Assembly (NCBI GenBank): GCA_964016885.1
Contig: OZ024741.1
Coordinates: forward strand, 182,466,001 to 182,530,000
Length of the DNA stretch: 64,000 nt
Direction of reading: 5' to 3'
Origin: Eledone cirrhosa
Taxonomy: Eukaryota
A program made the position numbers and the translations under genes. Position 1 is the first letter of the stretch. Every line of letters starts with the position of its first letter. A model generated the notes under the pieces. It worked only from the letters and a program-made list of their open reading frames with translations. It made no database searches and was not told the origin of the DNA. Of the stretch, positions 5,681 through 56,450 are shown piece after piece.

Positions 5681-5961
5681 CCCTCTTCCTGTTATATCAA
5701 GCGTTAACCTAATATATACCTTCCATATACTGTACCAATTGTGTTGTTATTTCTGTTTACCTTTTACATATATATATATATATATATATATATATACTTT
5801 GGGAGGGTCATGTTGCCAATAAGAAACACACGCACCAGTTGCTTTCACTTCAATTTATTATAACATATATATATATATTAGAAAGTGAGGTTTTTTTTAC
5901 AAAATGAAAATTAATCGAGGTGTCCTACACGAGTGAAAGTATAAAGAAAAAAAGATTTGGT

Positions 5962-6001
5962 TCCTTTACCGGTTTCGCAGTTCTTCTGCTTTTCAAAAGT
6001 A
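5962..6001 (-). ncRNA. Hammerhead ribozyme, U3-A8 core
   Basis: Reverse-complement copy of 6671-6710. Confidence 0.75.
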
Positions 6002-6670
6002 GAGTTGAGATGGAGGGTCTGTGGTTTTTCTCACATCTGGTTGGTCTTTAAATATTACTTGTTTTATATGGAAAAAAAGTGGCTCGAAACGCCAGGTTTT
6101 TAGAGAAGTAATTTCATTGGTTGGTCAATAATTATAATAAATTTCGCGCCAGTTCGCGTTACAAAGTTCTTCAAACAAGGGGAGGGGGCTCAGGTTGTTT
6201 TTTCATATATGAGTGTTTGAATTTCTTTTTACTTAAAAAAAGAGGCTCACGAAGGCTTTTTTTTTAATAAACGTAATTTGATTGGTTATAAATGAAATTA
6301 TGACTGTCACGAAAACAAGTTTTCATTAAATTTCGCGCCCGTATTTGGAAATTTATTCTGTAGTCTTTTTAGAGAATTTTATGACAAGCGAAAGATAATG
6401 GTTAAAAAAAAGCCTTCGTGACCCCTTTTTTTTTAAGTAAAAAGAAATTCAAACACTCATATATGAAAAAACAACCTGAGACCCCCCCCCCCCCTTGTTT
6501 GAAGAACTTTGTAACGCAAACTGGCGCGAAATTTATTATACTTATTGACCAACCAATCAAATTACTTCTCTAAAAACCTGGCGTTTCGAGCCACTTTTTT
6601 CCATATAAAACAAGTAACATTCAAAGACCAACCAGATGTGAGAAAAACCACAGACCCTCCATCTCAACTC

Positions 6671-6710
6671 TACTTTTGAAAAGCAGAAGAACTGCGAAAC
6701 CGGTAAAGGA
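6671..6710 (+). ncRNA. Hammerhead ribozyme, U3-A8 core
   Basis: CTT TTGAAAA GCAG-AAGAA-CTGC GAAA CCGG TA AAG; palindromic helix III CCGG, GUA triplet. Confidence 0.75.
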
Positions 6711-6808
6711 ACCAAATAAATATATATATATTTTTTTAATATAAGACTCCAGTTGTATTTTCGATTTCATCTTTTTTTCTTTATATATATATATATATAT
6801 ATATATAT

Positions 6809-7016
6809 AATGTATAAAAATCAATACAATATAATTACCTCATTACCAGAGGTTTCCCGAATGAAGCGAATACGAAAGAAACGTCTTCATTCGTTCGTCA
6901 GACGAGGCAATAGTTATTGTATTGATTTTTATACATTAAATTTTGCTCTGATACTTACATAGAGCACTCTTCACTTCTATGACCTTTTCTGTTTCCAACG
7001 GAAATTTCAATACTTA
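6809..7016. mobile_element. Fold-back element family F with HHR
   Basis: aatgtataaaaatcaatacaata inverted at 6914-6937; right arm carries the tail; related to 7981-8140. Confidence 0.75.
6835..6910 (-). ncRNA. Hammerhead ribozyme (type I)
   Basis: RC: TTGCCTCGT CTGACGA A CGAATGAAG...CTTCATTCG G GAAA CC-TCT-GG TA ATGAGGTAA; GUA triplet. Confidence 0.88.
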
Positions 7017-7307
7017 TATATATATATATAGGTAGAATGTAGGTAAAGAGTTCGGCTGTCAGGCCCCCCAGCTCTCTAGTATATTTACACTCTACTTTCC
7101 CCAGTATCGAGTACTCTGCTGAATAGCGGTATTACTAGTTTAAACTGGTAAAATCCTGACGTATAGACATATACACACACACACACGCACACACACACAC
7201 ACACACACACACACATACATATATATATATATATATATATATATATATATATATATATATATATATATATATATATATATATATATATGTGTGTGTGTGT
7301 GTGTGTG

Positions 7308-7410
7308 TTGGGTTCAATCGGGGGTAACCACAGTAAGTAAGGTACTCAATATGATTTCCTTCGAATGAAACAGTTCACGTCCTGTAGAAGTCATTTCTAT
7401 ATTAAATATA
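7308..7410. mobile_element. Fold-back fragment family D
   Basis: gggttcaatcggggtaaccacagtaagtaaggtactcaa identical to 47382-47420, joined to an inverted 3' half-HHR (GAAACAGTTCACGTC). Confidence 0.7.
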
Positions 7411-7626
7411 TATATATATCTTCTCTCAGTTATAAAAACTATCTCTTTCTCTCTATCACCCATCTCTCCCTCTCATCTCCTCCCCTTTTTCATCCTTCCC
7501 CCCCCCCCCCCTCTCTAAATAAAATATTTTTCCCAATATCACACATCAATCTAAAACCACTTTTCATATGTTGATTTAAAACTGCACTATCCACAAGTGT
7601 TTTTTAGCCTTCATATCATGTTCTCC

Positions 7627-7697
7627 TGTTTTATCTGATGAAAACACAAATATTATTGCATGATGATGTTTGTTTTTGAAATGCGCATAATAAAATA
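7627..7697 (+). ncRNA. Hammerhead ribozyme (type I)
   Basis: TTTTAT CTGATGA [AT-rich helix II] GAAA TGCGCA TA ATAAAA; palindromic helix III, AUA triplet. Confidence 0.85.
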
Positions 7698-54338: not shown

Positions 54339-54438
54339 CAGGGTATCCCAAAAGATGTATACACAATTTGATTACCTCTACAGGCAATATTTATTAGAAT
54401 GCTGTTGAAGTGTGTATACATTCTTTTGAGACACCCTG
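54339..54438. mobile_element. 100-bp Tc1/mariner MITE
   Basis: TIRs cagggtatcccaaaagatgtatacaca / tgtgtatacattcttttgagacaccctg, TA on both sides. Confidence 0.82.
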
Positions 54439-55341
54439 TATATATATATATATAGGGTTTTGATCTAGTGATCTTCGTAGTCCACAAAGGAGGAAAAAGT
54501 TAAAGTTTATAATGGAGTATATATATAAGTTGATTTATTCAATTTCTCATTTCTTATTTCTTATTTCTTATTTCTTATTTCTTTATTCAATGTTTCAGCA
54601 AAACAAGTGTTCATCAAGCCTGTTCGGAGAAGTAATGAGGTGTTGATAATTTATTGTAAATAGAAGGCGAAGATGAATGAGGTATGAGGGTTAGGAATGG
54701 CAGTGTATAGAAACTAAACATATTTAAACTAAATCCCGTCTTACCCATGCTAGCGTGGAAATGAACGTTAAACGATGATGATGATGATGATGATGATGAT
54801 GATGATGATGATGATGATGATGATAAATCAAATGCACCTCATACTTCGCTAAAGGGACTTAAAGAGTGCTCATTTTGATGAAACATCGTAGTTATGTTGT
54901 ACGAAAATGATTAAATCAACTTTATATATAGTCATTGATTCATTCAATGATTGATTCATTCATTCATTTAAAAGATTGGGGGTGGATAATTCTCTCAATG
55001 AAAATATATCCACTTTTTTATAGTTTAGTCAAGGATAAGCACAGTGTCCTTGACCTTTTCCAGTGCCATCAAAACTGGTGGGAAGGAGAGAGAAAGGTAC
55101 CATGAAACAGGAGGGTTGGTGCAAATGCTTGCAATATAGTGGAGTCCGCTAAAGGAACCAAGGGATCAGGTGGTGGTATTAAACCGGTCAACAGATAATA
55201 TCTACCAGCCATAAAAAGCATGTATTGAGTTCTATATATGTGTGCATGTGTGTGTATGTGTATATACATAAATGCACACACACATACACACACGCACACA
55301 CACACAAATACATATATATATCTATATATATATATATATAT

Positions 55342-55538
55342 ATAGGAACAAGTAAGACCCCGACGGCTGAGCTCAAGCCGTTTCGACGGCTAATTCTGGA
55401 GTCCAGAATTAGCCGTCGAAACGGCTTGAGCTCAGCCGTCGGGGTCTTACTTGTTCCTATTACCCACTCTACTACCCTAAGTATTGAGTACTTTGGTGCG
55501 TTATGGTCCACCTGGTTCCTTACCACATTTCCTTCGTT
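55342..55538. mobile_element. Fold-back element family A copy
   Basis: Perfect palindrome ~55342-55460 centred at ctgga-g-tccag, plus a ~79-nt tail. Confidence 0.9.
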
Positions 55539-55552
55539 ATATATATATATAT

Positions 55553-55742
55553 AGGGCGGTGGATTGGCAGTATCGGTGGAGGGTCGGACGCCATGCTTTC
55601 CAGCATAGTTACGTCCCTTTACGATCTGAGTTCAAATCCTGCCGAGGTTGACTTTGCCTTTCATCCTTACGGGGTCGATAAAATAAAGTACCAGTAATGT
55701 ACTGGGTAATTGCTGGCCTTGTGCCAAAAGTAGAAACAGTTA
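55553..55742 (+). mobile_element. SINE copy inserted in (TA)n
   Basis: Same family as 8334. Confidence 0.92.
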
Positions 55743-55884
55743 TATATATATATATATTATATATATATATATATATAATATATATATATATATATATATA
55801 TTATATATATATTATATATATATATATGTGTGTGTGTGTGTGTGTGTGTGTGTGTGTGTGTGTGTGTGTGTGTGTGTGTATAAG

Positions 55885-56035
55885 TTAGGTTAGACCATTA
55901 CTCACTAGAGTACTCGATACTTGGAGTAGTAGAGCATGGTAAAATTATAATGAGTCGGGACACCGACGGCTGAGCGCTTGCCGTTTCAACAGTTCGTTTC
56001 CAGAATCTGGAACTAGCTGTTGAAAGTACAATGGA
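55885..56035 (-). mobile_element. Family A-related element
   Basis: RC: gaaacggcaagcgctcagccgtc...ctctactactccaagtatcgagtactct; fold-back in helix II. Confidence 0.7.
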
Positions 56036-56062
56036 ATCTTATGTCTACATATATATATATAT

Positions 56063-56450
56063 AAGCAAAAAGGATATTTAATTTGTTGGTAATTCAACAA
56101 ATATATATGTTTATAACTGATTCGAAGCACTCACCAAGTTTTCTGGAGTATAATATCAATGATATTAAATAAATGGAAACTATGTTTATAAAACCATATT
56201 TATTCTATTATATATATTTCAAGGGTACCAAAACTTTGGTACGCTCTCATCAGATAAAATACAAAGTTTGTTTTATAAATATTGACATATCCAGGAAGAT
56301 CTTAACAGTTCAAGTTTTTCCAGGAAAAACTTGAACCGTTAAGATCTTCTTCCTGACTATGTCAATATTTGTAAAACAAACTTTGTATTTTATCTGATGA
56401 GAGCGTACCAAAGTTTTGGTACCCTTGAAAATAGAATAAATATGTGTTTA
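56063..56450. mobile_element. Fold-back element family C with HHR in both arms
   Basis: Palindrome centred ~56322; tail on the left. Confidence 0.85.
56201..56261 (-). ncRNA. Hammerhead ribozyme, family C
   Basis: RC: TATTTTAT CTGATGA GAGC GTACCAAA-GT-TTTGGTAC CCTT GAAA TATATA TA ATAGAATA; AUA triplet. Confidence 0.85.

Follow-up and report, generated by a model that had tools for sequence, protein, structure and literature searches.

How does a retroelement come to lie in the genome as two arms set head to head, one of them ending in a short tail that its partner lacks? The question is raised by a 64,000-nucleotide (nt) stretch of the Eledone cirrhosa genome (the window), animal DNA that is rich in (TA)n and holds numerous local palindromes, in which Penelope-like elements (PLEs) of several families are inserted in this form. 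The initial annotation of the window had supposed that each insertion has two arms, one running to the element's 3' end and the other stopping at a family-specific internal site, and had attributed this structure to reverse transcription primed by both target strands, on two templates or on a multimeric RNA. How PLEs form inverted structures, and why they favour microsatellites, are left as open questions in the available text of PMC8557442. We find that the architecture of one tailed plus one tail-less arm, published as occurring "often" or "optionally", is here a strict rule when it is counted, and we put at somewhat above even odds, roughly 55%, the reading that head-to-head insertions arise when both target strands prime on a single RNA and the primer slips at the tail-less site.

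The window elements are TA-targeting PLEs in which a reverse transcriptase (RT) is followed by a C-terminal GIY-YIG endonuclease (EN). In the coding copy of the window, GIY-YIG scores above and RT below cut-off, in two frames; a protein search with this copy gave 108 scored matches of 98-100% identity among 41,616 first-look candidates, and many relatives hold an intact frame of 777 amino acids (aa) with RT and then GIY-YIG in one open reading frame (ORF). Translations of intact copies contain EADKG and YAITCGGCKHNYIG, motifs named in the part of PMC8557442 available to us, and a CX4CxxC linker between RT and EN, in the form CGRTNCGTC, so that DKG, the linker and cysteines inside GIY-YIG occur in one frame. 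A CX2-5CxxC linker in this position is given in the same text as the criterion for the Neptune or Nematis clade, and the linker found here is of that form. To judge by these motifs, the coding family is an EN-bearing PLE of Neptune or Nematis type, and its insertions carry the corresponding hallmarks, namely partial tandems forming pseudo-long terminal repeats, an inverted 5'-truncated copy and a one-sided tail of 30-40 nt. The short families A-G are putative non-autonomous or truncated PLEs, filed as such by their end architecture and hammerhead-like motifs only.

The pairing rule emerges most clearly from 80 coding-family loci, taken in list order from the 108 matches after removal of same-locus duplicates and one short-contig row, and mapped on one natural unit from locus L079. 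Every resolved 3' end falls at one of two sites 36 nt apart, and all 51 resolved head-to-head pairs combine one tailed with one tail-less arm; of the 54 pairs the other three were left out, since one lies at the edge of its locus, one is a fragment, and a 42-nt piece divides the third. Besides the 51 two-armed loci there are 27 one-armed loci, in which either site is used alone (10 tail-less, 17 tailed), and 2 broken ones. The supposition that each insertion has two arms is therefore incorrect, both for these 27 of 80 loci and for the family A copy at window 37589, whose partner is only a 14-nt tail-less stub. On C1 up to 197.6 Mb, in copies not selected by ORF, there are 37 mixed pairings, no tail-less/tail-less pairing, and a single apparent tailed/tailed pairing, which is the internal tandem junction of L114; this count rests on the first 100 tailed matches and on 45 and 13 tail-less ones, with ends of 1, 3 or 4 CT units lying outside its patterns.

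Older families follow the same plan less cleanly. They were sampled in 1.85 Mb, made up of 99 position-chosen loci, the 80 coding loci and the window, with ends classed by anchors. Six of them have bimodal ends, and 54 of 65 pairs are mixed, three of these with gaps of more than 1 kb that possibly represent separate events; unpaired anchors are frequent (40/94 in family A). For family A, 86 of 87 TA-followed ends lie at two sites, all 47 tail ends finish in TA, and no read-through beyond the tail was seen among the 47 copies. Thus the end-points are bimodal and not random, and the individual ends listed in the initial annotation were verified: the family A sequence ttcct(a/g)t followed by (at)n at 7941, 37590 and 47937 (+) and at 26785 and 55342 (-), and likewise 5023 and 12305 in B, 38803 and 39315 in C, 6809, 36446, and in the coding element 27885 as against a tail at 31271-31306. 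Two window copies (36186 and 56453) stop short of their family site (Table 1). In 2/26 family A and 7/12 family E pairs the tailed arm consists of the tail alone, window examples lying at 7827 and 38985, and these arms (9/38 pairs of the two families) resemble the products of classical twin priming, except that the second site is fixed.

The tailed end itself is not the end of the RNA; it is a second internal TA run. In tandem junctions the element continues past the tail as ATATATA, and a further 20 bases bring it to the start codon (ATG) of a 421-aa frame, and read-through copies of families B and E, including that at window 11993, also continue past the tail end. The notions of an arm that runs to the element's 3' end, and of one primer placed at the RNA end, accordingly give way to one of two internal sites. 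The 421-aa frame lies upstream of the RT frame, from position 4192 of L079 onward (unit position 29), 28 nt after the tailed site.

Both coding-family ends lie on TA runs of the element, TATA at the tail-less and ATATATA at the tailed site. TA microhomology of 2-7 nt is present at all eight sites tested, and reaches at least 3 nt at seven of them, as compared to 7.7% expected by chance per site; the internal TA microhomology first proposed for the tail-less site is borne out as part of this result. TA runs of the L079 unit occur at 4828, 4868, 4906 and 4942 (spacings of 40, 38 and 36 nt), and only the last two serve as ends. Asymmetry of the flanking TA tract is weak in the coding family (p=0.045) and was not found in A, C, D or E. 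A hairpin common to both sites was rejected as a general feature, with z below -2 in only 2 of 8 families.

One difference between the two sites is the CT repeat that adjoins only one of them. The template carries (CT)2 ahead of the tail-less site, and more than two CT units, up to 45, are found at 35 of 63 tail-less ends and at none of 95 tailed or read-through copies. Genome-wide, counting exact sequence patterns, there are 669 tail-less ends with at least five CT units, 152 with exactly two, and 1,382 tailed ends; expanded CT in tailed copies was found 0 times by such patterns, against 1,405 in the positive control. Expansion is already present in 13 of 34 copies without a private substitution and shows no age trend (rho -0.06, 61 loci), and the partner side lacks an AG run in 24 of 24 cases. 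The simplest reading is that CT units are added during insertion by repeated realignment. Of 2,778 AT-tract edges in position-chosen DNA, only 33 adjoin (CT)5+, and just one of these repeats has TA to either side of it. Many of these 33 (CT)5+(AT)6+ tracts adjoin unique sequence; one is a coding-family tail-less end (L193), and others may be ends of other PLEs.

The geometry of the arms bears on how each was primed. In the 51 ORF-selected pairs the arm that extends further 5' is the tailed one in 33 and the tail-less one in 16 (always by more than 100 nt), the remaining 2 being equal; in 20 end-selected pairs the corresponding numbers are 8, 5 and 7. Either arm may thus be the longer, as first noted (tailed 35, tail-less 16 of 51 coding pairs), and the overlap of the arms stands for coding pairs, at 92 nt or more in 51/51, and fails for the tail-only arms of families A and E. 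A tail-less arm that reaches further cannot have been made by a single fold-back from the tailed end, and this class, together with the tail-only and lone tail-less arms, calls for a primer on the RNA at the tail-less site. The proposal that both target strands prime draws support from the arm geometry of these same pairs, and from PAc, the Poseidon element of Anolis carolinensis (Frangieh et al. 2024), for which the available text of PMC11167929 reports cleavage and extension of either strand in vitro. Equal 5' ends (within 12 nt) occur in 7 of 19 end-selected pairs compared to 0.84 by permutation, L217 having been left out of the permutation and classed afterwards; this class implies that both ends were made on or from one molecule.

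Where the arms meet, 51 different junctions are seen among insertions. Of 28 that lie outside microsatellites, 14 have 1-3 nt of microhomology, 4 are blunt and 10 carry inserts, and microhomology of 2-3 nt is present in 10/18 against a null of 14%. In family A, for instance at window 55400, the two arms usually start no more than about 10 nt away from a single spot. Longer copies (L142, L199) show a U3-A8 hammerhead-like motif there, with the spot located 3' in its long stem II, which suggests a structure-caused stop.

That the two arms have a common source is indicated by their sequences. Over 19,638 overlapping nt, arms of one insertion differ at 75 positions compared to 326 for cross pairs, which confirms the expectation that they resemble each other more than other copies, and private variants are common to both arms in L058, L110, L120, L124 and L125. 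Diagnostic cells, which are linked and not independent, are concordant in 431 of 433 cases as against 310.5 expected, and family A arms in 25/25. This concordance excludes arms drawn freely from the active pool. Thus the earlier idea of two templates, or of a multimer, is not supported for independent sources, and may hold for two molecules of one locus or two units of one multimer.

In the mechanism that we favour, dual priming on one RNA, the enzyme would cleave a (TA)n tract on both strands, each of which would prime reverse transcription of the same RNA at one of the two internal sites. A dimer would hold a single region of the RNA; one strand would pair at the tail-less site, its counterpart at a point 36-95 nt further downstream. 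Of the two RTs, the trailing one would displace the leading cDNA, with the result that the arms overlap and either may run further, or both stop together, and microhomology would then link the two cDNA ends. Before it escapes from the tail-less site, the primer would slip repeatedly on the RNA's CUCU, in a manner known from telomerase and its template. What has been observed of this scheme comprises the two classes of end and the strictness with which they pair, the TA microhomology of either site, the origin of both arms from one source and the (CT)n that is confined to tail-less ends.

The same observations can be read in other ways. Dual priming might draw on two RNAs that share a source locus, or on two units within a tandem or circular RNA, a possibility that we consider unlikely though serious: it would account for arms longer than one unit (23 read-through junctions, with arms of up to about 1.7 units in L094), for the microsatellite pattern shared by units of one insertion (arrays at or below the best cross match in 18/24 comparisons), and for overtaking without strand displacement, and circular templates have been proposed in PMC4209133. 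By itself, however, it forces neither the pairing of tailed with tail-less arms in 51/51 nor equal 5' ends at variable positions in 7/19, and no pair mixes subfamilies. Alternatively, the cDNA begun at the tailed site may fold back, or an antisense RNA prime itself, with the copy-back strand stopping at the tail-less site, stuttering there and joining the target. Self-priming on an antisense template was proposed by Arkhipova et al. 2013 (PMC3846280, available part), and the perfectly symmetric junctions at palindromic bases in L215, L221 and L224, the near-perfect palindromes at family A junctions, the identical origin of the arms, and a tailed arm that reaches further or equally far in 15/20 and 35/51 pairs are all in keeping with it. 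Since fold-back cannot give tail-less arms that reach further (16/51, 5/20), tail-only arms (9/38) or the 10 lone tail-less arms, we think it improbable as the general route; it may be the source of a share of events.

Two further explanations concern the ends and the assembly itself. Ends set by EN trimming of an intermediate, with (CT)n derived from the choice of compound microsatellites as targets or from later slippage, appear very doubtful. The available text of PMC8557442 does ascribe the tail most likely to EN-mediated resolution, and TA length plus extra CT on the tail-less side equals the tailed side (35.5 vs 34.5 nt), as if CT were a replacement and not an addition; yet RT start sites of PAc match tail ends (PMC11167929, in the part available), and the scarcity of (CT)5+ at AT edges and of its TA-flanked form, the lack of an age trend and the absence of expansion from tailed copies all speak against trimming. 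A fold-back artefact of sequencing or assembly, or a palindromic master copied en bloc, is scarcely credible. The coding junction of the window has no independent read cover, and L107 and L119 have a near-identical junction and near-identical arm lengths in different flanks, possibly an en-bloc copy of a two-armed unit; against an artefact, junctions vary between insertions, ends are asymmetric, flanks are not mirrored and arms carry differences, and independent short-read contigs contain (CT)n(AT)n at tail-less ends as well as the joints between arm and tail of family A. Restriction-site-associated DNA (RAD) reads break at the family A junction and therefore cannot span it.

A number of results tell against dual priming on one RNA, or fit it poorly. 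A longer TA run, TATATAT, 38 nt upstream ends a copy only once genome-wide, and microhomology does not therefore choose the site; because this best run is almost unused, position in the complex, and not pairing alone, would have to set it. The frequent further reach of the tailed arm (33/51, 8/20) means that the trailing RT must often overtake. Equal 5' ends are rare in the ORF-selected set (2/51, p=0.09), and those at palindromic bases fit fold-back equally well. Shared variants could also be explained by a pair of RNAs transcribed at one locus or by post-insertion gene conversion, L094 is discordant at one diagnostic site, and (CT)n may arise at second-strand termination instead of initiation. 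In the older families 11 of 65 pairs are not classed as mixed: nine with one arm unclassified, one double read-through, and one tail-less pair, which sits inside a larger palindrome (L152). A search for empty sites of 89 insertions found no true empty site and one weak look-alike, for L063. PAc, in the available text, initiates at an AC-rich site that lacks homology to the target, with no start-site difference between strands. We infer the RNA, the dimer and the order of events, as well as strand assignment, displacement, joining and slippage. A broader form of the one-RNA reading, in which an asymmetric Penelope dimer primes both strands via UA runs and a telomerase-related RT adds repeats in vivo, writing (CT)n and probably (TA)n tracts genome-wide, is possible, though less likely than not.

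The initial annotation had also linked the two arms to dimeric minimal hammerheads. In the coding family a U3-A8 minimal hammerhead-like motif, a variant described in PMC4209133, lies 110 nt upstream of the tail-less site by pattern match. Pattern matches are present in the coding family, A, C, D and F, and none was obtained in families B, E and G by the pattern used; among 150 of 195 matches listed there was no Rfam hammerhead, only simple-repeat matches below threshold. Copy counts across the predicted cut fall from 1,873 to 1,759 to 1,714, a loss of 6.1% at the cut and of 2.6% over the next 4 nt, which is the one control interval; ends at the cut are thus slightly in excess, and 1,759 of 1,873 copies (94%) read through it. 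On these grounds the hammerhead cut was rejected as the main template end. With hammerhead cleavage dispensable in PAc (PMC11167929, available text), the dimeric-hammerhead link is weak, and cleavage at the predicted site is probably at most a minor route. Hundreds of reads in two raw-read runs match only the 100-nt hammerhead-bearing segment at window 31098-31200 and then pass into unlike, AT-rich sequence.

Table 1. Penelope-like insertions and associated features of the window, numbered from its first letter
Feature	Position	Strand	Remarks
Coding PLE, long tail-less arm	27883..31062	-	5'-truncated; frameshifted RT and GIY-YIG frames at 30329-31105 and 29274-30413
(CT)16(AT)19 at coding-element tail-less end	27817..27887	-	Template holds only (CT)2
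Short inverted tailed arm, same coding insertion	31088..31306	+	
36-nt tail of coding insertion	31271..31306	+	Between tail-less site (TATA) and tailed site (ATATATA in read-through copies)
Hammerhead-like motif, U3-A8 core	31123..31162	+	Palindromic ACCGGU; pattern match only
Family A pair	7827..7941		Left tail-only arm, right tail-less arm; no overlap
Family A pair	26785..27041		Left tail-less; right tailed, with different upstream segment
Family A pair	36186..36367		Left arm stops 12 nt before family site
Family A tail-less arm	37521..37590	+	Partner a 14-nt inverted stub, no tailed arm
Family A pair	47747..47937		Left tailed, right tail-less
Family A pair	55342..55538		Left tail-less, right tailed (~77-nt tail)
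Diverged family A variant pair	56810..56980		
Family B pair	4660..5023		Left tailed, right tail-less
Family B pair	11994..12307		Left arm reads through tail end, right tail-less
Family C pair	38797..39051		Left tail-less, right tail-only
Family C pair	39090..39315		Left tailed, right tail-less
Family C pair	56063..56453		Hammerhead-like core 56394-56437; right arm stops 33 nt before family site
Family D pair	5880..6782		Left tailed with internal deletion, right tail-less; U3-A8 hammerhead-like core 6676-6707
Family E pair	12377..12648		Left tail-less, right tailed
Family F pair	6810..7016		Left tail-less, right tailed
Family G pair	36446..37113		Left tail-less, right tailed

Members of separate families are nested in the (TA)n flanks of one another, producing chains of ends (window 12377-12648 and 31331-31388; L060, L063, L076). 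The window also holds a repeat of 180-215 nt resembling a short interspersed nuclear element, both dispersed and in tandem arrays (19762-20580, 26090-26450, 8330-8520), and on the minus strand, at 57783-63263, a long interspersed nuclear element (LINE) with an 859-aa frame of RT and zf-RVT, an endonuclease-like frame upstream (60680-61237) and a 534-aa first frame. From its architecture we take this LINE to be L1/Tx1-like. A tblastn search against phage gave no match.

The canonical insertion unit of EN-bearing PLEs, as set out in the available parts of Craig et al. 2021 (PMC8557442) and, for Pen2a_Av, of PMC3846280, has an adjacent inverted 5'-truncated copy, partial tandems and a 30-40-bp tail that is often one-sided. 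The insertions described here share with it the inverted truncated copy, the tandems, the one-sided tail, the bias toward microsatellites and, by pattern match, a hammerhead-like motif near the end. They differ in the tails of the short families (59-110 nt), and neither TA microhomology at the two ends nor the addition of (CT)n appears in those accounts in the parts available. The closest parallel is PAc, in which, in the accessible text of PMC11167929, two internal RT start sites bound the tail downstream of the hammerhead, both target strands are cut and extended in vitro, a dimer is predicted and hammerhead cleavage is dispensable. The likeness lies in the two fixed internal sites, seen here as genomic ends 36 nt apart with read-through beyond, at which RT initiation is presumed; unlike in PAc, both sites are TA runs that match the (TA)n target and are always paired across one insertion. 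A term search of the available text of that paper returned no mention of head-to-head structures, slippage or microhomology. Literature searches joining Penelope with twin priming, slippage, microsatellites or telomerase-like activity, with subscription papers and the PAc supplements outside their scope, likewise returned nothing that ties two start sites to two arms or reports CT addition.

Outside the PLEs, L1 twin priming has both target strands prime, as is proposed here, with two opposed cDNAs joined head to head (PMC12016303, available part). The contrast with L1 drawn at the outset holds in degree: the L1 second site is variable and the overlap has a median of 12 bp in that text, whereas here it occupies a fixed place, 36-95 nt away from the first, and overlaps run from hundreds of nt to kilobases, the tail-only arms being exempt. 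The eel LINE UnaL2 undergoes template slippage on its 3'-terminal repeat (PMC1636434, as available), and with UnaL2 and with telomerase repeat addition the present case would share the repeated copying of a short template stretch at initiation; it would differ from UnaL2 in that the (CT)2 on which the slip takes place is internal, and that just one of the two start sites is affected. Thus inverted arms, a one-sided tail and two RT starts are known architecture, and TA microhomology at both ends and the tail-less (CT)n are additions that did not turn up in the literature searched. Because the coding family is very young, with intact ORFs, two exact start sites and a one-site CT stutter that serves as a reporter, the scheme is directly testable in the assay used for PAc. 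If repeat addition is true, a chromosomal retrotransposon would be carrying out a telomerase-like step, from which compound microsatellites could arise.

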